In this document: positions 5,011-62,138 of the stretch, in pieces
Layout: each line of letters starts with the position of its first letter
Numbering within the stretch: the first letter of the stretch is position 1
Assembly: GCA_003149935.1 (NCBI GenBank)
Contig: QAMH01000010.1
Coordinates: 14,827-78,826 of the forward strand
Source of the DNA: Coriobacteriia bacterium
GTDB taxonomy: Bacteria > Actinomycetota > Coriobacteriia > Coriobacteriales > QAMH01
Reading direction: 5' to 3'
DNA: 64,000 bases
Notes under the pieces: model-generated
What the model was told of the DNA's origin: nothing
The model's database searches: none
The model's input: only the letters and a program-made list of their open reading frames with translations
Program-made: the position numbers and the translations under genes

Positions 5011-5020
5011 AGGAGCTGTC

Positions 5021-6367: not shown

Positions 6368-6370
6368 GCG

Positions 6371-8768: not shown

Positions 8769-8815
8769 TGCAAAAATCGCCTAAAAATGCAAAAATCGCC
8801 TAAAAATGCAAAAGC
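8769..8815. repeat. 19-bp tandem duplication TGCAAAAATCGCCTAAAAA x2 plus partial third copy
   Basis: 8769-8787 equals 8788-8806, and 8807-8813 restarts the unit. Each junction creates an ATG (8787 and 8806), and these are in different frames. Confidence 0.9.
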
Positions 8816-10383: not shown

Positions 10384-10420
10384 AAAATGAGACAATATCT
10401 CTGAGCAATTGTCTCATTTT
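10384..10420. repeat. Single unit of TGAGACA palindromic repeat family (13-bp stem, 11-nt loop)
   Basis: AAAATGAGACAAT (10384-10396) pairs with ATTGTCTCATTTT (10408-10420). The loop sequence resembles the other family members. Confidence 0.85.
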
Positions 10421-16097: not shown

Positions 16098-16174
<77 letters not shown>

Positions 16175-17590: not shown

Positions 17591-17607
17591 GGGAACCCTC
17601 CTCGCGG

Positions 17608-19817: not shown

Positions 19818-19890
19818 GATGAGACAGTTGCTCAGGGACGTTGTCTCATTTCTTCATAATGAGACAACGTCCCTGAGCAACTGTCTCATT
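19818..19890. repeat. Double (head-to-head) unit of TGAGACA palindromic repeat family; 32-bp perfect stem, 7-nt loop
   Basis: 19819-19850 is the exact reverse complement of 19858-19889 (checked base by base). Each half is itself a 9-bp-stem hairpin, AATGAGACA-N15-TGTCTCATT. Confidence 0.95.
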
Positions 19891-25543: not shown

Positions 25544-25611
25544 AGCTCATGATTGTACTGCATGCACCGAACAAACACGGGGACTCTCCGGTTACAACAC
25601 GGAGACGGAGC

Positions 25612-25896
25612 GCCCCCCCCCTTGTCATTTCGAGCGGAGCGGACGGGGCCGCGCCCCCCTGTCATTTCGAGCGAGGCGAACGGGGCCGCGCCCCCCCCTG
25701 TCATTTCGAGCGGAGCGAACGAAGTGAGCGGAGTCGAGAAATCTCGGTCTTTCGCTTAATAGACAGCAGCGGTGGAGATTTCTCCACTCCGGCGCTACGC
25801 GCCTTCGGTCGAAATGACAAGAGACAAACCTTACGGCCCCTTCGGTCGGAATGACAAGGGGTAGGCCTTACGGCCCCTTCGGTCGGAATGACAAAA
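25612..25896. repeat. F1-family repeat array: three direct units then three inverted units (large imperfect palindrome)
   Basis: TGTCATTTCGAGCG starts at 25623, 25660 and 25699 (37/39-bp spacing). Inverse units end in TCGAAATGACA at 25818 and TCGGAATGACA at 25856 and 25893. Confidence 0.9.
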
Positions 25897-25898
25897 GG

Positions 25899-27251: not shown

Positions 27252-28343
27252 CTACTGGGCGCCAGTCATGGCCGGGTTGGGGCCAGAGGTCTGGTAAACC
27301 TCATCGGGACCGTCGGCAGGTGCCTCATCGGCAACCTCACCAGCAGGCGTAACCCACGTCCAGTACTCCTTGCCAGCCTCCCAGTAATCCATGAAGTCCT
27401 GGTGGCTCTGCGGCAGACGCGTGTAGTACTTGAGCTCTGCGGGGGTGACGCGACGCTGATAGCTCCAGATAATCATGAAGCGGAGCAGGCAGCCACCCAT
27501 GAGGGCGATGATCTGCGAAGCGTAGCCGCCCACGCTCGTGATGTTGAGCACGAACGGAATGACCAGACCGCAGCAAACCATGAGGCCCCAGAAGTAACCG
27601 GCCCACTCGCCACGGACCCAGCGCTCCGCATGGGACTTGGCGGTCTCGTTGGAAGCGCAGAACTGCAGCATCACGTACAGGAGCAGCACGACGAGCTCGA
27701 GTGCGATGAGAATCGCGTCGGCAACGTGCAGGATGTGACGCAGCTCCTCGGTGAGCAGCGCGGCAAGCGGCGTGGACAGGTTGACCTGCAGCCACTCGGC
27801 CGGGAAGGGCCACACGCCGATGCACATGGAGAGCAGGGCCGCACCCGTGGAGCAACCGGACACCATGAAGAGCACGGGCAGAACCGGCGTGTTCCAGAAC
27901 GGACGGGACTTCATGCTGGAGAGCAGAACGCCCGTGTAGATCGTGACGCAGAGGCCGAAGATGCCGGCGATGCCGAGCAGAACCTGAGCGCAGCCTTCAT
28001 ACGGAATGAAGGGCAGGAACGTGAACCAGGAGAGCTCCCAGAAGATGAAGAGCACGCCTGCGATCATCGAAATGGAGAGGAACACGGCACCCCACTTGAT
28101 GACCGAGGTCCTCGTCACGAAGGCACGGTAGAAAATCCACGGCTGACCGAGCTCGAACACGAGCAGGCCAGTGCCGATGCCCAGGATGAGGAACGCGATG
28201 AAGACGCCCCAGACCAGAGCACCACTGGTAAGAGCAGACGGCGCGATGAGCAATCCGACAACGGCGGCGGTCGCCATCATGCCGCCACCAAGGCCGCCCA
28301 AGAAGAGGTAGAGGGCGATAGGCCAAATCCAGAACTGTTTCAC
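27252..28343 (-). CDS. NrfD/PsrC-family polytopic membrane anchor subunit
   Basis: 363 aa. WIWPIALYLFLGGLGGG and SRPFWNTPVLPVLF are NrfD-family signatures. 4-nt overlap with the upstream gene. Confidence 0.85.
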   Translation of the reverse strand: MKQFWIWPIALYLFLGGLGGGMMATAAVVGLLIAPSALTSGALVWGVFIAFLILGIGTGLLVFELGQPWIFYRAFVTRTSVIKWGAVFLSISMIAGVLFIFWELSWFTFLPFIPYEGCAQVLLGIAGIFGLCVTIYTGVLLSSMKSRPFWNTPVLPVLFMVSGCSTGAALLSMCIGVWPFPAEWLQVNLSTPLAALLTEELRHILHVADAILIALELVVLLLYVMLQFCASNETAKSHAERWVRGEWAGYFWGLMVCCGLVIPFVLNITSVGGYASQIIALMGGCLLRFMIIWSYQRRVTPAELKYYTRLPQSHQDFMDYWEAGKEYWTWVTPAGEVADEAPADGPDEVYQTSGPNPAMTGAQ

Positions 28344-28903
28344 TGTACCGTACCTCCTAAATCGGGGATGTAGTAGATCATGGGCTCGGTACCAACCTCG
28401 GGATAGACCTGCTCGGTGTAATACGAGTTCACGAGCTTCGAGACCTCGCTGTTGGGGTCATCGAGATCGCCGAACGTGCGGGCCTTCTGATGACAGGTCA
28501 TGACGCAGAAGGGCTGCTCGCCCTCGCGGACACGATCCTTGCAGAAGGTGCACTTGCGGATGTAGCCCTCGTGCTCGTTCATATCGCGAGCGCCGTAGGG
28601 GCACGCATTCGCGCAGACCTTGCATCCCATGCACTGGGAAGGCTCAACCCACACGATACCGTCATCGTCCTGGCGGGACGCGCCGGTCGGGCAGGCGGGC
28701 ACGCAAGCGGGCTTGTCGCAGTGCATGCAGATGAGCGGCGTGAAGGTCATGTGGACATGAGGCCACACGCCCTCTGCTCCGTTGGAAACAACGGGGTTGT
28801 AGATGATGTCAATGGGCAGCTCGTTCCAGGTGCGGCATGCGATGGTGCATGACGAGCAACCAATGCAACGACGCTGGTCCATAACCATTGCGTAACGGGT
28901 CAT
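28340..28903 (-). CDS. 4Fe-4S ferredoxin-type electron-transfer subunit (DmsB/PsrB-like)
   Basis: Start taken at MTRYAMVMDQRRC (ATG 28903) after AGAGGAGG. Four Cys groups: CIGCSSCTIAC, CMHCDKPACVPACP, CMGCKVCANACP, CTFC. Confidence 0.9.
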   Translation of the reverse strand: MTRYAMVMDQRRCIGCSSCTIACRTWNELPIDIIYNPVVSNGAEGVWPHVHMTFTPLICMHCDKPACVPACPTGASRQDDDGIVWVEPSQCMGCKVCANACPYGARDMNEHEGYIRKCTFCKDRVREGEQPFCVMTCHQKARTFGDLDDPNSEVSKLVNSYYTEQVYPEVGTEPMIYYIPDLGGTVQ

Positions 28904-28919
28904 TCCAGTCCTCCTCTCT

Positions 28920-33125: not shown

Positions 33126-33200
33126 TGGTGGGCGTTACTGGGATCGAACCAGTGGCCTTTTCCGTGTCAGGGAAACGCGCTCCCGCTGCGCCAAACGCCC
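33126..33200 (-). tRNA. tRNA-Val (anticodon GAC)
   Basis: Manual cloverleaf: GGGCGTT acceptor, anticodon arm TTTCC-CTGACAC-GGAAA, T arm ACTGG-TTCGATC-CCAGT, CCA encoded. Confidence 0.9.
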
Positions 33201-33302
33201 GTGGCAAAGTAGTCTAACAGAATGACGCTTCATCGCAAGCACGTATTTTTACAAGTTTCTCTTGCGCTTTGCCAAAAACTTCCCTAGAATACCGCTCTGC
33301 GC

Positions 33303-33378
33303 GCGGAAGTGGCTCAGTTGGTAGAGCACAACCTTGCCAAGGTTGGGGTCGCGGGTTCGAGCCCCGTCTTCCGCTCCA
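33303..33378 (+). tRNA. tRNA-Gly (anticodon GCC)
   Basis: GCGGAAG acceptor, anticodon arm CAACC-TTGCCAA-GGTTG, T arm GCGGG-TTCGAGC-CCCGT, CCA encoded. Confidence 0.9.
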
Positions 33379-33387
33379 TGCTAAGTC

Positions 33388-33415
33388 AAGAGCCGGCTTC
33401 CCAGTCGGCTCTTTT
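33388..33415 (+). terminator. Hairpin plus T-run between tRNA-Gly and tRNA-Cys
   Basis: AAGAGCCG (33388-33395) pairs with CGGCTCTT (33406-33413), followed by TT. Confidence 0.45.
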
Positions 33416-33433
33416 ACTCAAAGCACGTGGCAT

Positions 33434-33507
33434 GGCGACGTGGCCAAGCGGTAAGGCAGAGGCCTGCAAAGCCTTTATCACCGGTTCGATTCCGGTCGTC
33501 GCCTCCA
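33434..33507 (+). tRNA. tRNA-Cys (anticodon GCA)
   Basis: GGCGACG acceptor, anticodon arm GAGGC-CTGCAAA-GCCTT, T arm ACCGG-TTCGATT-CCGGT, CCA encoded. Confidence 0.9.
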
Positions 33508-33518
33508 GCAAACGAAAA

Positions 33519-33549
33519 GGGCCGGGTAACCCCGGCCCTTGTTTTTTTT
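33519..33549 (+). terminator. Rho-independent terminator after tRNA-Cys
   Basis: GGGCCGGG-TAAC-CCCGGCCC followed by TTGTTTTTTTT. Confidence 0.7.
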
Positions 33550-33624
33550 GGTGGCCCCACCAGGATTCGAACCTGGAACCTGTCGATTATGAGTCGATCG
33601 CGCTAACCATTGCGCCATGGGGCC
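33549..33624 (-). tRNA. tRNA with CAT anticodon (elongator Met or lysidine-modified Ile2)
   Basis: GGCCCCA acceptor, anticodon arm ATCGA-CTCATAA-TCGAC, T arm CCAGG-TTCGAAT-CCTGG, CCA encoded. The GGCCCC/GGGGCC acceptor stem resembles E. coli ileX (memory). Confidence 0.85.
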
Positions 33625-33652
33625 AAACGACGGCCATTATACACGAGGGCCG

Positions 33653-35110
<1,458 letters not shown>

Positions 35111-49632: not shown

Positions 49633-49665
49633 AATGAGACAGTTACTCAGAGACGCTGTCTCACT
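49633..49665. repeat. Single unit of TGAGACA palindromic repeat family
   Basis: AATGAGACA-GTTACTCAGAGACGC-TGTCTCACT. Lies in a divergent promoter region. Confidence 0.8.
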
Positions 49666-49722: not shown

Positions 49723-50091
49723 ATGGAACAGGCCACGTTCGATTACGTCGCACCGCGCGTCGACATTCTCTCGACATCACAGGCCAGTACGCAGGTGACC
49801 AAGGACGCAGCGCTCGCATGGAAGGAAGCCGTCGCTGCCGACAACAGCGATGCAGCCGTCGAGCAGGCAACCGAGCAGCTGCTCGACATCCTCGAGGGAC
49901 GCCCCACCACCATCGACGGCGTCATCGCCTTTGCTCAAGGCCCCGCCAAGGAGATGTTCGGCGAAGAGGCAGCCGCCCAGATTTTGGCGAAGCAGGAACA
50001 ACGCAAGGCCGACGGCGCAAAGTGGTGCGACTGCGACGCCTGCACCGCCGCCACCGAGATCCTCGCCCAATTCAGCCGCGTAGAGCTGTAA
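49723..50091 (+). CDS. Hypothetical protein with C-terminal CDCDAC motif
   Basis: 122 aa, AAGGAGG 7 nt upstream. Acidic/alanine-rich, no family recognised with confidence. Confidence 0.5.
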   Translation: MEQATFDYVAPRVDILSTSQASTQVTKDAALAWKEAVAADNSDAAVEQATEQLLDILEGRPTTIDGVIAFAQGPAKEMFGEEAAAQILAKQEQRKADGAKWCDCDACTAATEILAQFSRVEL

Positions 50092-50103: not shown

Positions 50104-50688
50104 CTATACCCCCGGGTTCGTGAGGCGCAGGATGCTGCGCCCAAACTCGTAGCCGTACGGCGGCTCGGCCACCCAATCGGCCCTGAAGTCGCGCGTCGTA
50201 GTCGAGATGCTTTCCCCGCGGTTCACCGTCAGGTACTCGTCACTCCATATGTCGCGGTCGAAGGCGAGCAGCCCACCGTCCTCGCTCTCGATGATCACCG
50301 CCTGCACGCATTTGAAGTCGATGAGTCGCCGCGATCCCTTGACGAGCAACGCCGTATCCACCACCACGAGTATGTCGGCCACCTGAAAGCCGCACTCCAC
50401 GCGCGTCACGTGCTTGCCCGGCGGCGTCCACAGCTCCCCCTTCGCCGGCTCGGCACGCAGAATCGTGACCTCCTCCTCGATGAAGTCCGGCCCCAACGCA
50501 AGTGTCTCGTGCTCGTTCACGAGGTCGATCGCAAAGCCGTCGAAGACGAGCCGCGCGGTCTTGTATATGTGGTCGCTCTCGCCGTCGAGGCAATAGCCCT
50601 CGTATGCGACGAGCTCGCGCCCGATGCACGAGCGCAGAAGCGCCAGCGCTGTATCGTCAAACTGACGGCTAATTTCTATCAGGCTCAT
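50104..50688 (-). CDS. Hypothetical protein
   Basis: Start taken at MSLIEISRQF (ATG 50688). The longer track start would overlap the divergent aminopeptidase gene. Confidence 0.5.
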   Translation of the reverse strand: MSLIEISRQFDDTALALLRSCIGRELVAYEGYCLDGESDHIYKTARLVFDGFAIDLVNEHETLALGPDFIEEEVTILRAEPAKGELWTPPGKHVTRVECGFQVADILVVVDTALLVKGSRRLIDFKCVQAVIIESEDGGLLAFDRDIWSDEYLTVNRGESISTTTRDFRADWVAEPPYGYEFGRSILRLTNPGV

Positions 50689-50770
50689 GACAATCGCCTT
50701 CCCACTCGCGCACTCGTAGTATATTGACGCACTAAGCATACTGCATCGACCACCATATAGGAGGGTGTTC

Positions 50771-52195
50771 ATGGAACGCGAGAACGCATGGAAGAGCTAT
50801 AGCGACAAGGATCTCGATGAGCTCGAGAAACTCAGCAACGATTACATCGAGTTCATCTCGGAGAACAAGACCGAGCGCGAATGCGTGAGCGCCTCGATCG
50901 CTCTGGCCGAAAAGGCCGGGTACAAGTCGCTCGCCAAGGCCATCAAGAAGCAGCGCAAGCTCAAGGCCGGCGACAAGGTCTACGCCCAGACCCACGGCAA
51001 GGCCCTCATCTTGGCGGTGCTCGGTACCGACCCGCTCGAAGACGGCTTCAACATCTTGGGCGCCCACATCGACTCGCCTCGCCTCGACGCCAAGCAAAAC
51101 CCGCTCTACGAGAACACGGACATCGCGCTGCTCGACACGCACTATTACGGCGGCATCAAGAAGTACCAGTGGGTCACGCTCCCGCTGGCTATCCACGGCG
51201 TCATCGCCCTCAAGGCGGGCAAGTCCATCGAGGTCCGCGTCGGCGAAGACCCATCCGACCCCGTGTTCTGCATCTCGGACCTCCTCCCCCATCTGGGGCA
51301 AAAGCAGATGGAGAAGAATGCCAAGGAGGTCATCGATGCTGAAGACCTCGATGTGATCGTGGGCAGCAGGCCGCTTCTCTTCGAGAAGGACAAGCTCAAC
51401 GACGACTCTCCCGCATGGGAGAAGGTCGCCGAGAAGGAGCCGGTCAAGGCATCCGTGCTCAAGTACCTTGCCGAGTACTACGGCATCGAGGAGGAGGATT
51501 TCCTCTCCGCCGAGCTCGAAATCGTTCCAGCCGGTCGTGCCCGCGAGATGGGCTTCGACCGCTCCATGGTCATCGGTTACGGCCAGGACGACCGCGTCTG
51601 CGCCTACACGTCGCTCGTCGCCCAGCTCGCCATCGAAAATCCCAAGCGCACCGCCGTCACCGTGCTGGTCGACAAGGAGGAGATCGGTAGCGTGGGCGCT
51701 ACGGGCATGGAGTCACTGTTCTTCGAGAACACCATCGCCGAGATCATGGAGCTCGCCGGCGAAGGCGGCCAGCTCAAGCTACGCCGCGCGCTCGGTGCGT
51801 GCAAGATGCTGTCCTCCGACGTCTCCGCCGCACTCGACCCCTGCTACGCGAGCGTCTTCGAGCCCAAGAACGCCGCCTACATGGGTCGCGGCCTCGTCTT
51901 CAACAAGTACACGGGCGCACGCGGCAAGAGCGGCAGCAACGACACGTCGGCGGAGTTCGTCGCCGAGGTGCGCCGCGTCATGGACGGTGCGGGCGTCGCG
52001 TTTCAGACCGCCGAGCTCGGTCGCGTCGACATCGGCGGTGGCGGTACGATCGCCTACATCCCGGCCAAGTACGACATGGACGTCATCGACAGTGGCGTGG
52101 CCGTGCTCTCGATGCACGCACCCTGGGAGATCACGAGCAAGGCCGACATCTACGAGGCCCGCAAGGGTTACGAGGCGTTCCTGAAGAACGCATAG
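50771..52195 (+). CDS. M18-family aminopeptidase
   Basis: ATG 50771 follows GGAGGG. GAHIDSPRLD and DKEEIGSVGATG metal-ligand blocks. Confidence 0.85.
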   Translation: MERENAWKSYSDKDLDELEKLSNDYIEFISENKTERECVSASIALAEKAGYKSLAKAIKKQRKLKAGDKVYAQTHGKALILAVLGTDPLEDGFNILGAHIDSPRLDAKQNPLYENTDIALLDTHYYGGIKKYQWVTLPLAIHGVIALKAGKSIEVRVGEDPSDPVFCISDLLPHLGQKQMEKNAKEVIDAEDLDVIVGSRPLLFEKDKLNDDSPAWEKVAEKEPVKASVLKYLAEYYGIEEEDFLSAELEIVPAGRAREMGFDRSMVIGYGQDDRVCAYTSLVAQLAIENPKRTAVTVLVDKEEIGSVGATGMESLFFENTIAEIMELAGEGGQLKLRRALGACKMLSSDVSAALDPCYASVFEPKNAAYMGRGLVFNKYTGARGKSGSNDTSAEFVAEVRRVMDGAGVAFQTAELGRVDIGGGGTIAYIPAKYDMDVIDSGVAVLSMHAPWEITSKADIYEARKGYEAFLKNA

Positions 52196-52200
52196 GTGAC
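52081..52200. repeat. Left 120-bp direct repeat (aminopeptidase 3' end; putative attL)
   Basis: 115/120 identical to 61141-61260 by manual alignment. Confidence 0.95.
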
Positions 52201-52217
52201 ATTTAGCTGATAGCCTT

Positions 52218-52250
52218 AAACGGGCGGTCGCACTTTGCGGCCGCCCGTTT
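52218..52250 (+). terminator. 14-bp-stem hairpin after the intact aminopeptidase gene
   Basis: AAACGGGCGGTCGC-ACTTT-GCGGCCGCCCGTTT (one G-U pair). Confidence 0.5.
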
Positions 52251-52521
52251 CGATTGACCAACGTCACTTCATTCCATTGGGATGCATGAAACTGACGATT
52301 ATGTGAGACCGCGGCAAGACCCGTGTAAGAAAATTTCGATTATGTGTGACTAATCGCAAAGCAACTTTCACACAATCGAGAAAACCCTACAATCACGGCT
52401 GGCCAACTTCACAAAATCGTAAATTTCCCGCACCCCCGTACCGCCGGCTACACATAATCGAAATTTCTTTGCATGCGAGCCCTATCACATGCGCACCATC
52501 GCAAATCGAAAGCCGCGCTTC

Positions 52522-53790
52522 TTACTGCTTATCAAAACTGATAAGGCGGCGAGGTATCGCAAAGGCGATGATGCCAGCAGCTAGATACACGATGCCCGTA
52601 ATTGCGAACAGAGCATAGTTGTTGGAGCCTGCACCAAGGGCGATGAGAACCGGTATGAGCCACGCTCCAAGGTTCTGCAACGTCGCTTGCAGACCGCCTG
52701 CAACACCCATTATCTCCGGCTCGCGGATAATCTCCTTCAACATGCCCAGAAGCGCCTTGCCAAGCGGATTCACAACGCCATTGAAAAAACCAGTTATGCC
52801 CAACAGCAAAACGACAAGCTCGCCATTGGGCATGAACCATCCGAACACGCATATCAGGAAGATACATAGGCATCCGCTCAAAATGCACGCCTGCGTTCTC
52901 TTCATGCCAATCTTTTCGAGAACGAACGGAAACAGGATGCTCACAGCCATCATTCCAAAGCTGTTGAGCGTAACCATGTTATTTGCAAAGATCTCCGTTA
53001 CCCCTTTCGAGGCTACGACAGCAGCCGTCAGACTCGACGCGAAGGTCGTGCCAGCTCCCATGGGCAAGGCAATGACCAGTGAGGCGATCCAAACCCAGGG
53101 TCGCTTGAAAACAGCGAGATACTCGGAAATGCCAATATGGCTGCCAGCTGACTCTGCCGCCTTCTGCGGCGTCTTTCCCAGAAGCATGAAGCACAGGACA
53201 CCAACTGTGGATACGACGCTCGTGGCGGTGAGGACGGCCATCGTCGATTCAAAAAGGGCGGGAAACTGCACGCCCAGTGTAATGCCCACCGGCGCTCCTG
53301 CGACGTAAAACCCCATCGCCAAGGCAATGCGATTCTTGAACCATAAGCTTAGGTACTTGAGCGAATTCGCATTGAGCCCGGCAAGGCCAAATCCTATGAC
53401 GAAAGTCGCAAGATAATATAGCCAGAACTGGCCTGTGGGATAGAATGCGACACGCATCCACACACCAGCCAACGATATAAGAGCGCCAATCTTCATGGCA
53501 GTCGAGACTTGTATCTTGTCTCCAAGAACACCAAACGGAATGGCAAACACGGCTCCGGTGAGAAAAGAAGCGGACGCGAGCACGCCAACATCGGCTGGAT
53601 TGATTCCGTAATCGCTTACCAAACGCGCGCCAACGCCGCCGGTAACGCCCACTGCACACTCGAGCGCGACGTGGCACAAAAAGATTCCTGCAAGGGCAAT
53701 CCACTTCTTGGCCCCGTAAGGGTCAAGAATACGCTGATCCGCGAGGGGCTTTGACGCGCAAGCCCCTCGCTGCTCTTCATTTAACGACAT
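52522..53790 (-). CDS. MFS transporter
   Basis: Start taken at MSLNEEQRG (ATG 53790) after GGGAG. Multi-spanning. Confidence 0.8.
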   Translation of the reverse strand: MSLNEEQRGACASKPLADQRILDPYGAKKWIALAGIFLCHVALECAVGVTGGVGARLVSDYGINPADVGVLASASFLTGAVFAIPFGVLGDKIQVSTAMKIGALISLAGVWMRVAFYPTGQFWLYYLATFVIGFGLAGLNANSLKYLSLWFKNRIALAMGFYVAGAPVGITLGVQFPALFESTMAVLTATSVVSTVGVLCFMLLGKTPQKAAESAGSHIGISEYLAVFKRPWVWIASLVIALPMGAGTTFASSLTAAVVASKGVTEIFANNMVTLNSFGMMAVSILFPFVLEKIGMKRTQACILSGCLCIFLICVFGWFMPNGELVVLLLGITGFFNGVVNPLGKALLGMLKEIIREPEIMGVAGGLQATLQNLGAWLIPVLIALGAGSNNYALFAITGIVYLAAGIIAFAIPRRLISFDKQ

Positions 53791-53926
53791 GGTCCATCTC
53801 CCTGCACTACCAGCTGTTGATGCGTTTATGAAACACATCGGCTGAAATAAGCGAATAATCCCTCATAGTGCATTTCTCCAAATCTCTCCTGGTCACCCAC
53901 AAGACGAAAGACCAGGTCGTCTTTTG

Positions 53927-54085
53927 CTATTCACCGGAGGGAGGCTTGGGAATGAAGATGTCGCGTTTTTTCGCATCATTGGCGACATGATTGTCTGCCA
54001 TGCCCATGCGCTCGTAGGAGGTAAGCTCCCTCTCCTCCTGAGCCTCCTCGACACGCTTTTCGTCAGCTGCACTTTCATCTGCCAT
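53927..54085 (-). CDS. Small acidic hypothetical protein, 52 aa (below track cutoff)
   Basis: MADESAADEKRVEEAQEERELTSYERMGMADNHVANDAKKRDIFIPKPPSGE. AGGAG lies 9 nt upstream. Preferred over the overlapping R-rich 61-aa track ORF. Confidence 0.35.
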   Translation of the reverse strand: MADESAADEKRVEEAQEERELTSYERMGMADNHVANDAKKRDIFIPKPPSGE

Positions 54086-54254
54086 GATGGTCTCTCCTTT
54101 TCTTTAGATCGTCAGCAATATCGCAAGACCTGGAACTCACCTAACGATGCGTTCCGTAGTCGCAAGTTGCCAACATGAACGAATGGGGGGGGTGCCCAGC
54201 CGGTTGGGGGCAAAACTCAGGGAAATAGCCGGCTGGGCAAACGGATGGACGGTA

Positions 54255-55511
54255 CTACTTGCCTTCCAGGTCCGGACGCACCGGAAGCACCTTCTTCTTG
54301 ACGTAGAGAGTGAGCATAACCGTAAGCACGAGGCTGACGATTGCAAGCCCGACGATGAGCGGCAGGCACGCGGCCCACACACCACCAGCGCCATCGATGA
54401 GGGCACTGGGCAGCGTCACTCCGAGAGCGCCACCGATGTTAGCGCCAATCATCATGATGCCCATAGCCATCGAGAGCGTCTTGGGATTCTTCAGGATATC
54501 GGGCACCCAAGCAAACGCCACCGGCATGTTGATCGTGGAAACGAACGAGTACCAGATGATGAAGATTGCCATGATGGCAGCCGGGACACTGAATACGACG
54601 AGGAACGTCACGATACTCACGGCGCATATCGCCAACATCAGCCAACCGCGCTTGGTCGGCTTGACGATATTGATGATGATGCCAATGAGCACACTGCCGA
54701 CAATGCCGCCAAGAGATCCCAGAGAAACCAGATTATTCGCATCTGCAGGATCCAGACCAGCGCCCATGGGGCTCGACAGGTAAGCCGGATACAGGCCAGT
54801 GTAAACAGAACATCCAAACGCCAGACCACAGCAGATGAGGGTGAGCAGCCAAGGGCCTGGCTCCTTCAAACCATCGACGATCGAAGCCTTCTCCTCTGGC
54901 TCATCGGTGCCATCGGCATCGGCAGCTTGCTGACCCGGATTCTTAATGAACAAAATGAACAACACGAGGGCGATGATCTGGCAAACGCCAACAACAATCC
55001 ACTCGCCCTGCCAGCCGAATGCAGGGACGACGCCATTAGCGATCTGAGCGACCAGAAGCTGCGCGACAGGAACCCAAATAACCCAGATACCATTGGGCAA
55101 GCCTCGTTGTTCAGGAGCGAAGCTTGCCGAGATAATCGCGACGCTTACCATGGTCAGACAGCCATAGGAAACAGCGTCGAGCACGCGGCTTGCGATAAGC
55201 AATTCGATACTCGGAGCAACGGCGCCCAAAAGGCATTCCAGAATGCCGCAGACGATGACAATGATGCCAAATGTCTTGACGCCAACCTTCTGCATGATGC
55301 CACCGGCGGGAAGCGCGGTAACCAGACAACTGATACCGACAATGGACATCATCCAGCTGACCGTAGTCATGTCAGTCCCATAGAAGTTCATGATGTTGGG
55401 CATGTTGACAGGGACCTTGAACATGCCCATTGCAATAGTGATGCCCGCGAAAAAGACGATTGCAAACTGCAACCACGCCTTTGCCGGACTCATGGTTTGC
55501 TTGTTATCCAT
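54255..55511 (-). CDS. MFS transporter
   Basis: 418 aa. AAGGAG 6 nt upstream. Starts 9 nt after the stop of the ferredoxin-subunit gene. Confidence 0.85.
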   Translation of the reverse strand: MDNKQTMSPAKAWLQFAIVFFAGITIAMGMFKVPVNMPNIMNFYGTDMTTVSWMMSIVGISCLVTALPAGGIMQKVGVKTFGIIVIVCGILECLLGAVAPSIELLIASRVLDAVSYGCLTMVSVAIISASFAPEQRGLPNGIWVIWVPVAQLLVAQIANGVVPAFGWQGEWIVVGVCQIIALVLFILFIKNPGQQAADADGTDEPEEKASIVDGLKEPGPWLLTLICCGLAFGCSVYTGLYPAYLSSPMGAGLDPADANNLVSLGSLGGIVGSVLIGIIINIVKPTKRGWLMLAICAVSIVTFLVVFSVPAAIMAIFIIWYSFVSTINMPVAFAWVPDILKNPKTLSMAMGIMMIGANIGGALGVTLPSALIDGAGGVWAACLPLIVGLAIVSLVLTVMLTLYVKKKVLPVRPDLEGK

Positions 55512-55520
55512 CGTAGCTCC

Positions 55521-56327
55521 TTATTCCTTTTCCAGTGGAAAGTCACCTATGTTGAGGCTTTCTTGCAACGTGATGGGCTTGTTCTTCACACCTTTGAAAC
55601 CTGGAGCTTCAATGTTCAAAACATACTCACCAAGATTCAGGTGCTTGAACCAAAAGTCACCAAACCCATCCGTCTCGGTCTCGAGAGTCTCGCCACTGGG
55701 GCAGCGCAAAGTCACCTTCGCACCCTCAATGATGAGATCGGCTTCTGGATCCCATACTTCACCGGAAATAAAGAAGCCGAATGGGTTGAGATAATGCACG
55801 CGCGAACCCGAATCAGCGATATTGAACGCGCCGGTATCTTGCGCAATCTCGTCAGCAAACTCCTCTTCATCACCGAAACGTAGGGCACCCGTTGCGCAGG
55901 CATCAACACAGTGAGGGAGCTCTCCTTCATCGACAAGGTGAGCGCAACCGGTGCATTTTTGAGCAAGGCTCAAATCTTCGTTCCAATACACCGCACCATA
56001 CGAGCAAAGATGCACCAGGTCTTTCCTACCCACGGCCTTCTCAGGATCGATGATAACCAGGCCATCCTCGCGACGATACACGGCTTCGGGTGCAGCCTCG
56101 ATCAAAGGGCAATACTCACAGTGACGGCACAGCATCGGACGATACTCAATGCGAACTTTAGGGACTTGGCCATGAGTGCGCTCGTACATCTTGAGCCAGA
56201 ATTGTCCCGTATTTGGCTCTGGCTTCGAGTAGGGCGGCCATGCATTGCCAACGTTCTCATCCTTGCATGCAAGCTGACAGGCGTAACAGCCGTTGCACTT
56301 GTTAAGATCAACGACGAAAGTCTTCAT
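55521..56327 (-). CDS. 4Fe-4S subunit with C-terminal beta-sandwich tail, pyrogallol transhydroxylase small-subunit (BthL)-like
   Basis: 268 aa. CNGCYACQLACKDEN, CRHCEYCP, REDGLVIIDPEKAVGRKDLVHLCSYGAVYWNEDLSLAQKCTGCAHLVDE. Tail GAKVTLRCPSGETLETETDGFGDFWFKHLNLGEYVLNI. Confidence 0.8.
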   Translation of the reverse strand: MKTFVVDLNKCNGCYACQLACKDENVGNAWPPYSKPEPNTGQFWLKMYERTHGQVPKVRIEYRPMLCRHCEYCPLIEAAPEAVYRREDGLVIIDPEKAVGRKDLVHLCSYGAVYWNEDLSLAQKCTGCAHLVDEGELPHCVDACATGALRFGDEEEFADEIAQDTGAFNIADSGSRVHYLNPFGFFISGEVWDPEADLIIEGAKVTLRCPSGETLETETDGFGDFWFKHLNLGEYVLNIEAPGFKGVKNKPITLQESLNIGDFPLEKE

Positions 56328-56329
56328 CC

Positions 56330-58915
56330 TTATGCCTCCTCTTTAATCCAGCTGGTGATGTCAACGCCCTCGGCAGGGTCATAAGGACGATTGAACGCCT
56401 CGGGGTATTCCTCTGCGAGTCTGAAAACGTCGACTTTCTCGATACCAACGAGGAAGCCACTGGTGACTTCACCCGCAGCGTTCTTGGATGTAATCTTCGA
56501 AGGAGCGATAAGATTATTGGCACCTCCACGATCGGAAACACCTGGCTCGATGGGATCGAGACGAGCGCCATGATCCTGATAAACGGTATTGGTGCGAATG
56601 CGCTCGGTCACAATAGCACCGCCCAAGACCCAACCGCGCTGGTTGTAAATCTTCACGATGTCGCCACTGATGATTCCAAGGGGAGCCGCATCTTTCGGAT
56701 TGATCCAGACGGGCTCGTACATGTAGCCATCAGGTCCCTTTACCTTGCAGGTCGGGATTTCACGGATCCAAGGAATATCATCCATGTTCGCATGAACGCG
56801 CCAACGAGGATGATTCGACACCATCAAGAAGGGATACTCTTGCGCGCGGTCGCACAGGAGGCTCTCCTGATGGCGGGTGCCATACTGGATGGAATGCGGA
56901 ACCGGCCTGCGCTCCTTGTCATCAGGGAAGTGCTCCGCGAGACCCGTTGCGTAGAATTCGATTTTGCCTGTTGGAGTCTGCAGAGGAAACGCCTCGGGGT
57001 CATTGCAGAAATTCTCCCAACCGCGGGGCAGGTCTTCCCAGTCCTCCATCGTGGGGGCAACGTAATAGCCCTTCTCCAAGAACTCATCGAACGTCATCTT
57101 GTCGGGAGCGCCTTGCTGAGCGCAATCAAAGCCAACCTTGACCCACTCCCTGACGTCCTTGCCCTCGGTGTACTCCTCGTAGAGGCCGAGCTTCTTGGCA
57201 ACTTCGCCAACGGCTTCATAGTCACTCATCGATTCTCCGAGCGACTCAACTGCCTGCGCCTCATAGAAGATGCTGCCAAACTGGCCGCCACCATTATCCT
57301 GTCCGACATCCTCTTCCTCGAACTTGGTGTTAATGGGAAGCAGGATATCCGCGAAGAGGCAGTCGTTCTCCATCCAGGGGTGTTGAGCAACGACGCATTC
57401 GATTCTCTCATCGCGAAGCGCGTCCTCCATGGTGTTGCCACCGTTCCAGCATGTCGTCCAACACGGAGTGTCCGTCCAAATCATGTGAATCGGCTCAGCT
57501 CCCGGAATGGGGTACTGATACTGCTGGAACTGGTTTTCACGTGGCCAGGAGCACACGGTGTAGCCCATCCAAGTCAAGGGATTCTCGGCCGTATAATCGC
57601 CAAGGAGCGCCTTGGCAACCAGAGTCTTGGGAATGGAAGACTTGGTTTCCTGGAAGTCCCAGCCATGGTAGGCCGCACCAACAATCATGTTGCTCGAATA
57701 GCAGGGAGCCGGTTGCTGAGACGGCAGGCCGTACATGTACCACTCGATGAACTTGACAATGTTACGACCGGGCTTGCCAAGACCCATCATGGTCATGAGC
57801 GCGGCTTCGAAACGCGCAGGCTCATGAGAGTAGGTGGAGCGAATAAACGATCCGCCATTGCCATGGCCGATGCTCGTGGCCCGCTTTGCCCATTGATGGG
57901 CAAGCGCTTTGATTTGGCGGGAGGGAACACCGCAGATAGGAGAAGCCCATTCAGGCGTCTTGGGCTGCCCATCTTCCTTGCCGAGAATATAGTACTCGAA
58001 CCAATCATAGCCCACGGAATGCGTATCGATATACTCCTGGTCAACGAGACCCTCCGTCATCCAGACATAGGCAACAGCCGCCTGCAACGCAGAGTCCGTA
58101 TTGGGAAGAACAGGAATCCATTTGTCAGCATGCACCGCTGCGCCGTAGTTGAGATCAGGGCAGATATAGACTTGCTGAACACCGATCTCGGTAAGCCAGA
58201 AGCAATAGGCGCTGGGAAGCTGCCCCTGCCAACCCCAGGTCGTCGTCTCCATATCGCAGCCCCACAGAAGCAGCATGTCGGAGTTCTCGGCGATGTCCAG
58301 AAGAAGGTTGCCGATCTCGAACTGACCCAACGGGTCTTCGCCCCACATGTGCTTTGCTCCCCAGTACCAACCTTCCCAGGAGTCTGGCTGGCGAGCCTGA
58401 TAGGTCCAATCGTCGCCGATAAGGTTCATGAGGCGTGTCGGGCATCCATGCGACGCGTGGATAACCTTCGTCTCGCCATGTCCATCGGCCTGTACAAACA
58501 CCGACGACAAACCGTAGGTGTCTTTGACGCGCATAACCTCATCGGCGACGATCTGAGTTGCCTCATCCCAGGAGATACGCTCGAACTTGCTTTTTCCTCG
58601 ATTCTGGGGATTCCTTTCTCCCTTGGGATCCCAATCAACGCGCTTCATTGGATAGAGGATGCGATTCTTCGAATACACACGATTCTTGTATGCGTATGCA
58701 TATGGCGGAAGCATGGTCTTGAGACCGGAATGAAACTCGCTTCCTCTTGCTTTGATGGTCCACGGCTTGAGATGCTCCACGGAGTACTCTTTGTCGTAGC
58801 GCAGCGGGCGTGTGCGAATAATTTTGTCATCCTGCACATCGACCTCGGCAACATTCGCACCGATGCCGAACGAGTTCAGACCCGTTGCCTTGATAACTGT
58901 TTTCTTGTCAGCCAC
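56330..58915 (-). CDS. bis-MGD molybdoenzyme, pyrogallol-phloroglucinol transhydroxylase large-subunit (AthL)-like
   Basis: 861 aa. No N-terminal Cys cluster and no signal peptide. Blocks YPMKRVDWDPKGERNPQNRG, ERISWDEA, DSWEGWYWGAKHMWG, GESMSDYEAVGEVAKKLG. Confidence 0.8.
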   Translation of the reverse strand: MADKKTVIKATGLNSFGIGANVAEVDVQDDKIIRTRPLRYDKEYSVEHLKPWTIKARGSEFHSGLKTMLPPYAYAYKNRVYSKNRILYPMKRVDWDPKGERNPQNRGKSKFERISWDEATQIVADEVMRVKDTYGLSSVFVQADGHGETKVIHASHGCPTRLMNLIGDDWTYQARQPDSWEGWYWGAKHMWGEDPLGQFEIGNLLLDIAENSDMLLLWGCDMETTTWGWQGQLPSAYCFWLTEIGVQQVYICPDLNYGAAVHADKWIPVLPNTDSALQAAVAYVWMTEGLVDQEYIDTHSVGYDWFEYYILGKEDGQPKTPEWASPICGVPSRQIKALAHQWAKRATSIGHGNGGSFIRSTYSHEPARFEAALMTMMGLGKPGRNIVKFIEWYMYGLPSQQPAPCYSSNMIVGAAYHGWDFQETKSSIPKTLVAKALLGDYTAENPLTWMGYTVCSWPRENQFQQYQYPIPGAEPIHMIWTDTPCWTTCWNGGNTMEDALRDERIECVVAQHPWMENDCLFADILLPINTKFEEEDVGQDNGGGQFGSIFYEAQAVESLGESMSDYEAVGEVAKKLGLYEEYTEGKDVREWVKVGFDCAQQGAPDKMTFDEFLEKGYYVAPTMEDWEDLPRGWENFCNDPEAFPLQTPTGKIEFYATGLAEHFPDDKERRPVPHSIQYGTRHQESLLCDRAQEYPFLMVSNHPRWRVHANMDDIPWIREIPTCKVKGPDGYMYEPVWINPKDAAPLGIISGDIVKIYNQRGWVLGGAIVTERIRTNTVYQDHGARLDPIEPGVSDRGGANNLIAPSKITSKNAAGEVTSGFLVGIEKVDVFRLAEEYPEAFNRPYDPAEGVDITSWIKEEA

Positions 58916-59056
58916 GAAATCCTACCTCCTTCAAAAAGACGCTCTCTCTTTTCTCAGAATTCTCGATACGTTTTGCGCGCGATGAACGTTGAGAATTCCC
59001 TCCGAACGTATTATTGGAAGGGGCTTGGCTGCTTGAACAGTCACTATGATTTCATA

Positions 59057-59077
59057 ATGCATATGTCAAAAATGCAT
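59057..59077. promoter_or_regulatory. Candidate LysR-type operator ATGCAT-N9-ATGCAT (contains TGCA-N11-TGCA)
   Basis: Lies in the divergent region between the Mo-enzyme operon (start 58915) and lysR (start 59177). Confidence 0.35.
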
Positions 59078-59176
59078 ACCTGCAGTTAGACGTGCATCAC
59101 GCTAAAAACGAGAACACGGCGTTGCATGTTGCAGAGGGATTTCAGGACTAGAATAGAATCGAGGGGAGGCACAGAT

Positions 59177-60052
59177 ATGCAAATTGAGTTCATTCGTGAG
59201 TTTCTCACTGTTGCGGATTGCAAAAGCATCTCTGAAGCAGCCCAGAATCTCTTCCTGACGCAGCCAGTTCTAAGCAGACATATCAAGGCGATCGAAACGG
59301 AACTTGGAACCGATTTGTTTGCCCGATCTTCAAGGGGACTCGAGCTCACCGATCTGGGCGAGGAAGTATATAACTCATTCACCAATATCTTGCGTTCATA
59401 TGACAGCCTTGTCGACCGAATAAGCGCCGTAAAGAAATTCAATACTCATTCGATTCATTTTGGCATACTGGCCATGACAGCCGATCGTTATGCCATTCCG
59501 TTGGCAAAACAATTCCGTGAAGAAAATCCTGATGTCAGGTTTACATTCATTACCCTCAAGCCCAATGACATCATCGATGGCCTGGTTGCAGGCAGACTCG
59601 ACGTAGGTTTCGTGGGAACCAACAAGTTCCAGGATAAGGGGCAGCTCACATATGTGAAAGTTGGAAAAGAGCATCTCAATCTCGCAGTACCCCTCACCAA
59701 CAAGACGGCAAAGATGGACTTCATAACCGCTGAAGATATCGGCGACAGGCCTCTCGTATGTTTAAAAATGAATGACACGACACGAGTGCTCAACAACGCG
59801 TTATTTAATGCCGGTTTTCAACCAAGAAAGATATTGTCTGTCGACGAGCTCGAAATTGTAGCCACAACAGTTCTTGAAAATAATGGGTATTTTGCAATAC
59901 CCGACTACATGCGTCCGCTTTTTAAAATGAACCCGTCGCTTCGCGTACTCAGAATTGAGCCCCCTCTACAATTCAATGCATACTTCGCATACAAGACCTC
60001 GACAGTCAACGCAACCACCAAACGCTTCATAGAGAGCGTCGAGAAACCCTGA
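59177..60052 (+). CDS. LysR-family transcriptional regulator
   Basis: ATG 59177 follows GGAGG by 8 nt. HTH SISEAAQNLFLTQPVLSRHIKAIE. Confidence 0.9.
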   Translation: MQIEFIREFLTVADCKSISEAAQNLFLTQPVLSRHIKAIETELGTDLFARSSRGLELTDLGEEVYNSFTNILRSYDSLVDRISAVKKFNTHSIHFGILAMTADRYAIPLAKQFREENPDVRFTFITLKPNDIIDGLVAGRLDVGFVGTNKFQDKGQLTYVKVGKEHLNLAVPLTNKTAKMDFITAEDIGDRPLVCLKMNDTTRVLNNALFNAGFQPRKILSVDELEIVATTVLENNGYFAIPDYMRPLFKMNPSLRVLRIEPPLQFNAYFAYKTSTVNATTKRFIESVEKP

Positions 60053-60065
60053 GCAGTTAGTATCC

Positions 60066-61019
60066 CTATTGCAAACCAAGCTCACGAAGCCTCTCGATAA
60101 CACGCTGCATCCCGTCCTCGACCTCAGGGATGCCCTCTCCTTGATTCAAAAGATATGCATGGTGCAATCCCTCACCCACAATGAACTCGACATCCCCACC
60201 TGAGCACGAAATAGCCCTGACGAATTCGCGGATACCTGGATAAAGCTCTTCAAGCGTGCCACATAGCACCAACATGGGAGCCAAACCCTTCTTTGGCCCA
60301 TAAAACGGATCGGGCGGAAAAGCGTCAGGAGCGTTTTCGGTTCCTTCCACGAGCAACCGCGCTATCTCTCTGCTCCCATACCAATCGAGCAGAGGATCAT
60401 CCACTTTATAGCCTTCGCGATCCGCAACAACTCCCATCAAGTCTACAAACGGGGAATATGGAATCAGAAGATCGGGCTGCGCGAGATCCCTCTCTGCGCA
60501 TATTTGCGAAATAGCAATAGCCAGCGCCCCTCCGGCGGAGTCCCCCATAAGGGCAATCCTTTTGTCCGGATACCTATTTCTAATCGTTTCGTATGCCTCA
60601 AGACATGAAGAAAGAATCTCCTTGATTGAAGCTGAAGGGAGCAGAGGGTACATGGGCAGTGATACACCACATCTTAGCTCTCGCACCAAACGAGCGGACA
60701 AAAAGTAGTGTGGGGGCACGGCCGGAAACACATATCCTCCGCCATGGATATAAATGACGTGGACATTGCTGACACCTCTCGAATCATCTGCCTCTTTTGG
60801 AAGCAAGGTCACGAGCTCTGCAGTGTCCGTAATCTGCGAAATTTCAATCCTTGCATCTCTTAAGACAGAGACAGGAATCTCAAGCATCTTTTTATCGGAC
60901 TGTTGGGCAATGCGGCTTCCGTCGATTATCTGAGCAAACAATTGCGGGTTGCGAAAGCCTTCAACCATATTTGCCGCACGCATCGCATCGATGCATTCTT
61001 GCGCTTGCCTGCTCAACAT
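60066..61019 (-). CDS. Alpha/beta hydrolase, hormone-sensitive-lipase (family IV) type esterase
   Basis: 317 aa. Oxyanion HGGGY, nucleophile elbow GDSAGG. Confidence 0.85.
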   Translation of the reverse strand: MLSRQAQECIDAMRAANMVEGFRNPQLFAQIIDGSRIAQQSDKKMLEIPVSVLRDARIEISQITDTAELVTLLPKEADDSRGVSNVHVIYIHGGGYVFPAVPPHYFLSARLVRELRCGVSLPMYPLLPSASIKEILSSCLEAYETIRNRYPDKRIALMGDSAGGALAIAISQICAERDLAQPDLLIPYSPFVDLMGVVADREGYKVDDPLLDWYGSREIARLLVEGTENAPDAFPPDPFYGPKKGLAPMLVLCGTLEELYPGIREFVRAISCSGGDVEFIVGEGLHHAYLLNQGEGIPEVEDGMQRVIERLRELGLQ

Positions 61020-61140
61020 AAAGCATGCCTCCTTCGGATAATGTATGCTCTTCTAGAATTAATTATTAGTGCGCGAGGCGCTGGTGCATAGGCGCTTTTT
61101 TTCATAGAGCCTATGTAATAACTGCATAGCTAGCATATAA

Positions 61141-61255
61141 CGTCATCGACAGTGGCGTGGCCGTGCTCTCAATGCACGCTCCCTGGGAGATCACGAGCAA
61201 GGCCGACATCTACGAGGCCCGCAAGGGCTACGAGGCGTTCCTCAAGAACGCGTAG
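61141..61255 (+). pseudogene. Orphan 3' fragment (last 37 codons plus stop) of the M18 aminopeptidase gene; right direct repeat extends to 61260
   Basis: Reads VIDSGVAVLSMHAPWEITSKADIYEARKGYEAFLKNA*, identical in protein to the end of the intact gene. There is no upstream coding continuity. Confidence 0.9.
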
Positions 61256-61269
61256 GTGACTGACACTCG

Positions 61270-61302
61270 AATGAGACAGTTGCTCTGAGCAACTGTCTCA
61301 TT
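61270..61302. repeat. Collapsed TGAGACA-family palindrome (16-bp arms), probable bidirectional terminator
   Basis: AATGAGACAGTTGCTC-T-GAGCAACTGTCTCATT. It equals the outer arms of the 19818-19890 element with the centre missing, and overlaps the PIN gene stop codon. Confidence 0.85.
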
Positions 61303-61762
61303 AGACATCCAGGAGTGCGGCCATCAGCTCCTTATCCTCATGATCGACCGTGAGGAGGAACTCCTTGGCCGTGACGCTCTTCACCTTGCTGCCCACAAAG
61401 GCGTCCTCATCACGTGTGATAATGAAATCAGCCCCGTTCAGCTCTGCGCACGCACGGACGAGCCCGTCTTCGAAGTCGGGCTCGTTGCTCCGAAGGGAGC
61501 GGTCGCATTCCTCTGCGGAAACGGGAGCAACCGCCACGAGGCCCAGAAGGTTCTCGAGCGCCTCGCGCGCAATCGCCTCGCTGTAAGCCCGACACAAGAT
61601 GTAGTAGGCGTCGTTGAAGGAAGTCGCTGCCGCAAATCCGTAATCTCCACTACCGTTGCACCACCTCAGCAACGCAAGCGCTTCGTCATGCTGAGGACGA
61701 TTGGGAATAACACTATCCAGGAGAATATTGGTGTCGAGCAAGATCCTATACATCGCGCTCAC
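61301..61762 (-). CDS. PIN-domain toxin (VapC-like)
   Basis: MYRILLDTNILLD... and the C-terminal ITRDEDAF acidic residues. The start may be ATG 61753. Confidence 0.8.
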   Translation of the reverse strand: MSAMYRILLDTNILLDSVIPNRPQHDEALALLRWCNGSGDYGFAAATSFNDAYYILCRAYSEAIAREALENLLGLVAVAPVSAEECDRSLRSNEPDFEDGLVRACAELNGADFIITRDEDAFVGSKVKSVTAKEFLLTVDHEDKELMAALLDV

Positions 61763-62039
61763 CCAGAAGGTCTTTCATCTGCGCATCTGACATACCTGCA
61801 AACGCCTCGGGCGCTGGCGGAAGCGTCTCCACGAACTCGACGAAGCGAGAGAACTGGGCGCTTGGAACCGGCTTGCTGGCAGGCGCGGTCAGAGCCTCGG
61901 GCAACTCCCCCGTCTGGGCGATCGAGAACCACGTGGCCTTGATCACATCGGCCACTGTAAGGCCCGATGCGCGTATGACGCGATCTGCGCGCTCCTTTAT
62001 GGCTTGGTCAATTCGGCCCGAGACAACAGCAGTTTGCAT
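61746..62039 (-). CDS. RelB/DinJ-type (RHH) antitoxin
   Basis: Start at MQTAVVSGRIDQAIKERADRVIRASGLTVADVIK (ATG 62039 after GGAGGG). Overlaps the PIN gene start. Confidence 0.65.
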   Translation of the reverse strand: MQTAVVSGRIDQAIKERADRVIRASGLTVADVIKATWFSIAQTGELPEALTAPASKPVPSAQFSRFVEFVETLPPAPEAFAGMSDAQMKDLLGERDV

Positions 62040-62056
62040 AACGCCCTCCATCTTGA

Positions 62057-62071
62057 TGTATACAGTATACA
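62057..62071. promoter_or_regulatory. 15-bp palindrome TGTATAC-A-GTATACA upstream of antitoxin gene (candidate autoregulatory operator)
   Basis: 7-bp perfect inverted repeat, 18 nt upstream of the antitoxin ATG. Confidence 0.35.
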
Positions 62072-62138
62072 CCGACAAGGAGGAGCTATTCCAACGAGGC
62101 GTCATCAAAAACGCATAGGAGTTATTGTTTGAACCTGT

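Follow-up and report, generated by a model that had tools for sequence, protein, structure and literature searches.

The DNA analysed here, called the window in what follows, is a stretch of 64,000 nucleotides (64 kb) from a Coriobacteriia bacterium (GenBank assembly GCA_003149935.1, contig QAMH01000010.1, positions 14,827 to 78,826), and it contains an island of 8,939 bp (window positions 52201-61139) in the 3' end of a gene for an M18-family aminopeptidase. We consider it very probable that this island is a unit bounded by attachment (att) sites, which was inserted by an exchange between a site carried on the element (attP) and the chromosomal gene end (attB), and which has spread horizontally. 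Into this one gene end, the att-bounded unit has inserted more than once and in recent times. It is an integrase-less, att-flanked genomic island of gut Coriobacteriia with a putative polyphenol cargo and does not represent a new category of element.

The island lies between two copies of a 121-nt direct repeat (52080-52200 and 61140-61260), which are identical at 116 of 121 positions according to both a MAFFT alignment and a repeat finder, with a BLAST E value of about 1e-51. A preliminary description, made from the letters of the window alone, had given the repeat as 120 bp with five differences; the repeat proved to be one base longer on the left, and the mismatches are found at exactly the five positions named (52111, 52120, 52168, 52183, and 52192) and nowhere else. 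The pair is the sole long-range direct repeat above 55 nt in the window, and the homology between the copies stops as sharply at both ends as had been described. All five mismatches fall on third codon positions of the aminopeptidase frame and are silent, in agreement with the same description, and both copies encode the same 37 residues followed by a stop (VIDSGVAVLSMHAPWEITSKADIYEARKGYEAFLKNA). Five random changes would all fall on third positions with a chance of (1/3)^5, or about 0.004. The features of the site are given below.

50771-52195, plus strand: M18-family aminopeptidase, the target gene, 474 aa, intact despite the insertion (Pfam Peptidase_M18, E 3e-80; also 474 aa in public assemblies)
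52080-52200, plus strand: attL, the left repeat copy, comprising the last 37 codons, the stop, and GTGAC; a hybrid with host alleles at 52111/52120 and element alleles at 52168/52183/52192
52121-52167, no strand: interval that, on the allele pattern of the empty sites, would contain the crossover in this strain; 47 nt identical in both copies
61140-61260, plus strand: attR, the orphan right repeat copy, without a start codon; a hybrid with element alleles at 61171/61180 and host alleles rightwards of the crossover
61267-61305, no strand: TGAGACA palindrome, chromosomal, outside the island

An in-frame stop at 61127-61129 lies just before attR. The DNA right of the orphan copy continues with the TGAGACA palindrome, the PIN and RelB genes of a toxin-antitoxin pair, and then purL. 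The preliminary description had correctly pointed out that this palindrome also occurs at other loci of the window and that the left copy is followed by an unrelated hairpin, which we place at 52218-52250. A possible third, decayed repeat copy at 62102-62126 matches at only 19 of 25 positions and is probably due to chance.

A scan of the species collection with the aminopeptidase returned one close relative (L001, metagenome-assembled genome [MAG] MGYG-HGUT-02074), which shares about 93-97% identity with the window in core genes; an ENA metagenome scaffold of 358 kb matches the window at 100% identity. Since L001 also bears the island and provides no empty site, empty sites had to come from metagenome assemblies, where they were sought by exact look-up of the PIN protein and then by scanning the contigs with an invariant 32-nt core. 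The look-up yielded L083 and L086, each with a single 121-nt copy; within 45 nt of the aminopeptidase stop, these contigs continue with the palindrome and the PIN gene. The core scan added L109 and L116, single-copy empty sites with the window-type junction and the palindrome directly after the stop, as well as four single-copy empty sites of more divergent lineages with a different post-stop sequence (L110, L111, L114, and L118). Empty sites of the predicted form, with the stop leading directly into the TGAGACA palindrome and the PIN/RelB genes, are thus present in L083, L086, L109, and L116, which are independent assemblies of the species to which the window belongs. The palindrome at these sites is a terminator-like hairpin common to the aminopeptidase and PIN genes. 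In more distant relatives (L005 and the P0138 lineage), purL directly adjoins the aminopeptidase gene, and this adjacency is the ancestral state.

The five variable positions read G,A,C,C,G at the empty sites, G,A,T,G,A in attL, and A,T,C,C,G in attR, so that the empty-site copy equals the left part of attL joined to the right part of attR; the implied alleles of the element-borne attP are A,T,T,G,A. Because of this correspondence, the insertion reads as a reciprocal attP x attB recombination, with the exchange placed within 52121-52167 in this strain. The aminopeptidase protein is unchanged by the insertion, and the original gene end has been displaced 9 kb downstream. As both copies are hybrids of host and element, the five differences pre-date the insertion: they already separated the copy on the element from the gene of the host and do not reflect divergence of the orphan. 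The earlier idea that the orphan copy diverged under coding constraint therefore does not hold for a divergence after insertion. Similarly, an element did integrate into the 3' end of the gene, but the replacement end ascribed to it is limited to the part of attL right of the crossover, consisting of the alleles T,G,A at 52168/52183/52192, the GTGAC, and the hairpin.

Direct repeats around foreign DNA could also result from a target-site duplication made by a transposase, from a dispersed repeat, or from an assembly artefact, and we judge the chance of any of these to be close to negligible. The copies differ at five sites and carry alleles foreign to the host site at insertion; because these alleles are absent from the host's own site, the second copy was brought in and not copied locally. 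Neither a transposase nor terminal inverted repeats were found. The 32-nt core occurs in metagenome contigs at this locus only, and the same repeat and island structure recurs in at least six independent assemblies. The dispersed repeat, which the preliminary description had named as an alternative to insertion, is ruled out by this distribution.

Between the strains that bear it, the island is 99.0-99.8% identical, whereas the flanks differ by 3-8%. The divergences from the window are as follows.

L093: aminopeptidase 7.6%, island 0.23%, right flank 2.9%
L115/L112: aminopeptidase 6.2%, island 0.16-0.34%, right flank 4.6%
L001: aminopeptidase 7.5%, island 1.0%, right flank about 4%

In each of these three lineages, the divergence changes, on the left as on the right, at a distance of no more than about 35 nt from the repeats. 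The presence or absence of the island does not follow the phylogeny of the flanks, as the island-bearing L115 has flanks 99% identical to those of the empty L083 and L116. The left end of the island in L122 and L123 matches the window at 170 of 170 positions, beside an aminopeptidase allele that is 85% identical, and L119 and L121, which encode the same aminopeptidase protein, are isogenic empty sites for these two contigs. Near-identical islands between diverged flanks, with the step located at the repeats, show that the island moved horizontally as a discrete unit. Since no co-transferred flank was seen on either side in the three lineages compared, transfer by recombination of the flanks is excluded.

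Judged by this comparison, vertical inheritance could not give the observed pattern of island and flanks, which bears on a further explanation, namely that the island is an immobile relic. It would have entered once with its own integrase, lost the integrase by deletion, and been inherited vertically since, with the empty sites arising only through deletions that joined the two repeats. Such a history is compatible with the lack of an integrase, and the reciprocal allele pattern fits a deletion as well as an insertion. We nevertheless regard the relic as very unlikely, as the divergence of the island (0.16-1.0%) is 4- to 40-fold below that of the flanks with the step at the repeats, the strains with the island do not form a clade in the genes that flank it, and the island also stands beside the 85%-identical aminopeptidase allele. 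The non-coding arms of the island are 99-100% identical among the variants, so protein selection cannot explain the low divergence.

Two observations concern the contigs with the 85%-identical allele. An IS3-family element (HTH_Tnp_1 and rve domains) is found in the island hairpin of L122 (2084-3396) and L123 (2063-3363), at about window position 52237. The near-identity of the last 116 nt of the gene in this lineage was considered as a scar of the element and dismissed, as the high-identity tract reaches to about 480 nt before the stop and reflects ordinary allelic recombination.

The closest homologue of the island's molybdenum enzyme (Mo) large subunit outside the species, with 92% aa identity, is found in another Coriobacteriia (L105/L106). 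There, all seven island genes form a cluster that adjoins proS-rpsP-rimM-trmD, and no flanking repeats were found at this cluster. The order in L106 is MFS-hydrolase-LysR-Mo-beta-MFS-52aa, and the order in the island is hydrolase-LysR-Mo-beta-MFS-52aa-MFS. Joining the island ends via the repeat restores the L106 order, with a 561-bp att region in place of the 55-nt spacer of L106. The island gene order is thus a circular permutation of a static homologous cluster in another genus, which fits a circular intermediate, and we infer that the island may pass through a circular form.

The GC content of the island is 0.523, compared with 0.608 for the rest of the window, and no 8.9-kb stretch outside the island falls below 0.580. 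The GC content at third codon positions (GC3) is 0.51-0.68 in the island genes and 0.70-0.88 in most open reading frames (ORFs) outside. The lower GC that had been estimated from single lines therefore holds for the computed GC and GC3. Some ORFs outside the island also have a low GC3 (1794-3164, 0.63; 8806-9933, 0.57; 16307-17866, 0.67; 33309-33656, 0.63; and the PIN/RelB genes, 0.68-0.69). Deviant composition, presence/absence polymorphism, and a discrete insertion point are all found here, as is general for genomic islands. The features of the island are given below.

52218-52250, plus strand: element-supplied hairpin (I22) with 15-nt arms, 93% complementary, without a following T-tract
52283-52474, no strand: five-copy array of a 17-24-nt motif (TTTCGATTATGTGTGA), two copies direct and three inverted, with a spacing of about 41 nt, in the non-coding left arm
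52522-53790, minus strand: major facilitator superfamily (MFS) transporter, 422 aa, last island gene in the integrated order (Pfam MFS_1; 75% aa identity to the L106 transporter MFS419)
53927-54085, minus strand: conserved 52-aa ORF, a called gene (90% aa identity to the 52-aa ORF of L106)
54255-55511, minus strand: MFS transporter, 418 aa (Pfam MFS_1, E 6e-41)
55521-56327, minus strand: Fe-S beta subunit with a C-terminal CarboxypepD_reg domain (Pfam Fer4_11 and CarboxypepD_reg)
56330-58915, minus strand: molybdopterin large subunit, pyrogallol hydroxytransferase-like, 861 aa (Pfam AhtL-like_1st, PF21423; Molybdopterin, PF00384; Molydop_binding, PF01568)
59177-60052, plus strand: LysR-family regulator, 291 aa, oriented divergently to the operon of the Mo enzyme (Pfam HTH_1 and LysR_substrate)
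60066-61019, minus strand: alpha/beta hydrolase, 317 aa, first island gene in the integrated order (Pfam Abhydrolase_3)
61020-61139, no strand: non-coding right arm with the promoter region of the hydrolase gene and with a small hairpin that has a T-run (identity between island variants 99-100%)

The hairpin at 52218-52250 is likely to serve as the terminator of the aminopeptidase gene. No Rfam family was found in the 50-64 kb part of the window.

The best solved-structure match of the Mo large subunit is the pyrogallol hydroxytransferase large subunit (PDB ID 4V4C, E 4.5e-128), the pyrogallol-phloroglucinol transhydroxylase of Pelobacter acidigallici, which the island protein matches over its full length. 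The small subunit of the island shares the layout of an Fe-S part and a CarboxypepD_reg-type domain with this enzyme. The predicted cargo thus has the layout of the pyrogallol-phloroglucinol transhydroxylase family, with an AhtL-like bis-molybdopterin guanine dinucleotide subunit and an Fe-S beta subunit with a C-terminal beta-sandwich. In contrast to the Pelobacter enzyme, the island enzyme has genes for a hydrolase, for a LysR regulator, and for two MFS transporters as its neighbours. As far as domain content can tell, the cargo is probably a substrate-inducible conversion system for polyphenols of the trihydroxybenzene or gallate type, in which the hydrolase, the two transporters, the transhydroxylase-like Mo enzyme, and the LysR protein act together. 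The clade of the Mo enzyme is kept separate from the gut catechol dehydroxylases (PMC7028382). One island copy (L113, OHWK01001684.1) is short of 72 nt, in frame, in the gene for the Mo large subunit (window 56802-56872).

The preliminary description had noted that no integrase or transposase lies between the repeats or nearby, and the domain searches agree. Pfam searches on all island ORFs returned only MFS, Fe-S, Mo-enzyme, LysR, and hydrolase domains and no integrase, resolvase, or transposase, and none of these three was found among 50 ORFs across the whole window. The precomputed Pfam annotation of the next 10 kb rightwards contains no recombinase, nor was an integrase found 3' of the aminopeptidase gene in L002, L003, L004, L005, and L008, all of them other Coriobacteriia. 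The 32-nt core is absent from viral contigs, and look-ups with the island proteins return the same site in the same species only. Comparison of the att arm and the island with plasmids and phages gave only short Mo-enzyme similarities in proteobacterial replicons.

Our preferred mechanism, held tentatively and with a confidence just short of even, is that of a cargo-only, att-flanked island moved by a site-specific recombinase supplied in trans, comparable to the cis-mobilizable elements (CIMEs). The attP site on the circular island would recombine with the chromosomal gene end (attB) and rebuild the aminopeptidase gene, the att sites being cut and rejoined by a recombinase, probably of the tyrosine type, that would be encoded elsewhere. 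A helper integrative, conjugative, or phage element would supply the recombinase and the transfer from cell to cell. The motif array at 52283-52474 might be an arm-type or transfer site. We favour the recombinase in trans because the anatomy is classical for integrative elements of gene ends such as e14 in icd, because integrase-less att-flanked elements are known to be moved by helpers, because a helper would also solve the problem of cell-to-cell transfer, and because the motif array next to the core resembles protein-binding sites and has no other obvious role. At up to three mismatches, the TTTCGATTATGTGTGA motif gives three matches against 0.33 expected, none of them elsewhere in the window, and the array is present in island-bearing loci only. 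The motifs are therefore candidates for recombinase arm sites or an origin of transfer (oriT). We also considered the array as a miniature inverted-repeat transposable element, which is unsupported, as neither the rest of the window nor any of 118 loci has a copy outside the island.

Several known systems share parts of this anatomy. The position of prophage e14 in the icd gene of E. coli was reportedly described by Hill et al. in 1989. The element lies between icd, whose 3' end is supplied by the prophage, and the orphan icdC; its excision recombines icd with icdC and leaves mostly silent changes (PMC13626634). Like e14 and phage 21, which also lies in icd, the island brings a near-synonymous end that replaces a few dozen final codons, orphans the original end, and leaves the gene functional. 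These phage-derived elements encode an integrase beside the att site, whereas the island has no recombinase or phage gene and its att sites are adjoined by an MFS transporter and the hydrolase; in contrast to e14, the exchange point lies in the middle of the homology and not at its edge.

Among the actinomycetes, the integrative elements SLP1 (about 112 bp) and pSAM2 (58 bp) have long att identities in tRNA genes and carry int, xis, replication, and transfer genes. The island is like them in its Actinomycetota host and in an identity block of about 100 bp that restores the 3' end of the target gene, and differs in that it has no int, xis, replication, or transfer genes and no tRNA target.

The CIMEs of streptococci have lost their integration and transfer genes but still possess attL and attR. 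Once an integrative and conjugative element (ICE) or an integrative and mobilizable element (IME) has joined them by accretion, they can be moved, providing a precedent for integrase-less att-flanked elements that are moved by helpers (PMC5704250). The island likewise has attL and attR derived from the 3' end of a protein-coding gene, for which a site-specific and a homologous origin both fit, and it lacks integrase and transfer genes, is polymorphic, and is evidently still spreading. It differs from CIMEs in the absence of a cognate ICE or IME and of tandem accretion at the site, in an att identity of 121 nt instead of a few tens, and in its host, a gut Coriobacteriia and not a Firmicute. Thus, the att sites and the lack of mobility genes of a CIME are found, and a descent from an ICE or IME is not, as the island has no remnants and no integrase-bearing occupant of the site was seen within a limited sampling of about 50 contigs.

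A number of observations weigh against the recombinase in trans. Across about 50 contigs of three lineages, the site is empty, holds the island, or holds the island with the IS3 element (L122/L123), and never an integrase-bearing element or a tandem array. The island contains no decayed integration or conjugation genes, which is a further difference from CIMEs, and thus shows no trace of an origin as an ICE or IME. Neither Rfam nor plasmids and phages gave a match to the motif array, and none of the retrieved contigs contained a circle junction. Contigs that end within the repeats (e.g., L094, 9,039 bp) were considered as circle junctions and rejected, as their ends are simple breaks in the 47-nt stretch common to both copies. 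The homology extends left of the crossover interval for at least 41 nt, which neither a site-specific enzyme nor the repair of the gene would need. The left/right haplotypes of the repeats are GATGA/ATCCG in the window, GACCG/GTCCA in L001, and GTCCA/GTCCG in L093, and one strain carries a private allele, 52118A, in both copies. Because the haplotypes differ and 52118A occurs in both copies, the repeats do undergo homologous exchange, and no one fixed crossover point is demonstrable.

These points lead to a close rival of the recombinase in trans, in which host recombination of the RecA type loops the island out between the repeats and inserts the circle through one crossover of the Campbell type. 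The only targeting device would then be the gene end in its 121-nt copy, and the island would enter new cells by some non-specific means, for example transduction, transformation, or a conjugative co-integrate. We see this as a possible mechanism, though with a chance well below even. It would account for the lack of a recombinase in the island, in the window, and at the site in any lineage, for the long homology on both sides of the crossover interval, and for the gene conversion between copies that is visible as 52118A in attL and attR of one strain. The repeat mosaics vary by strain (L001 has the element allele A at 52192 in attR and not in attL), and the element alleles T,T,G at 52120/52168/52183 occur naturally in a sister lineage (L110, L111, and L118), as expected if attP exchanges with hosts. 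The island consists of a metabolic cluster and a 561-bp att region without decayed mobility genes, which also suits host recombination. Furthermore, the locus is recombinogenic. The aminopeptidase alleles of L086 (693-2025) and L119 (3276-4700) are mosaics, which share only 50-85% identity with the window over their first two-thirds and continue from about window position 51724 to the stop as the common allele (L083), a pattern that indicates frequent allelic recombination at this locus.

On the other hand, a non-replicating 9-kb circle has no evident entry to another cell, and a linear transfer would drag flanks along, none of which were co-transferred in the three lineages. Stretches of 116-121 nt with 96-99% identity recombine inefficiently, the motif array would be left without a role, and the first capture of the gene end would need an extra step of aberrant excision. 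The more far-reaching form of this idea, a recombinase-free cassette that uses about 120 nt of a housekeeping gene end as an address label and hops among the strains and species sharing it, seems to us rather unlikely; such a homology-addressed cassette would be the natural counterpart of suicide-vector (Campbell) integration in the laboratory.

Further observations concern the surroundings of the island and its relatives. TGAGACA...TGTCTCA palindromes are found at the ends of convergent or adjacent genes (10387-10417, 19819-19889 with copies starting at 19819 and 19859, about 49635-49663, and 61267-61305); this family has at least five copies in the window and is a dispersed chromosomal repeat that also occurs in related strains. 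The PIN/RelB pair (window 61301-62105) is absent in related genera, and it is present in L119 and not in L121, despite the same aminopeptidase protein. A paralogous PIN/RelB pair with 80% identity lies in L115 (8312-9083) between the homologues of the window genes 49723-50091 and 50104-50772, and L001 has about 1 kb of extra sequence at this same second site. The toxin-antitoxin module itself seems to be mobile, to judge from its distribution.

A comparable gene end is found outside the phylum, in a Lachnospiraceae MAG (RGIG9247, L015:10004-20434), where an M18 aminopeptidase is followed by a 283-aa ORF without a Pfam match, by two orphan copies of the aminopeptidase 3' end (12288-12383 and 12518-12910), and then by a type I restriction-modification system. 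From its layout, this looks like nested insertions in the same gene end, again without an integrase.

Elsewhere in the window, arrays of a 37-nt unit (GTCATTTCGAGCG and its complement) are located at 4516-4778 and 25611-25909, 21 kb apart, with opposite orientations within each locus; one lies inside the region of a TerB-domain gene and the other is intergenic. A defence-like group (1794-9933) encodes a DUF4143 ATPase, a TerB_N/TerB_C protein, a BrxC/BrxD-family ATPase, a DEAD-box helicase, and an AAA_16 protein, and two of its genes have a low GC3 (0.57-0.63). Two more molybdopterin oxidoreductase loci are found in the core (23324-25543 and 27252-31835), one of them with Fe-S and NrfD subunits, and the genome is rich in this family. 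Five tRNA genes (Pro, Val, Gly, Cys, and Met) at 16098-16174 and 33126-33624 have no adjacent island or repeat.

For the uncultured Coriobacteriia of the human gut, these results mean that a trait, probably one of polyphenol metabolism, is exchanged between diverged lineages as a compact and precisely bounded unit, and the strain-level presence or absence of such traits may not track taxonomy. With att sites, empty sites, near-identical copies, and a static cluster available for comparison, the island provides a clean natural case for the movement of recombinase-less islands. If the homology-driven, helper-free reading is true, catalogues of mobile elements that depend on an integrase would miss a class of islands.

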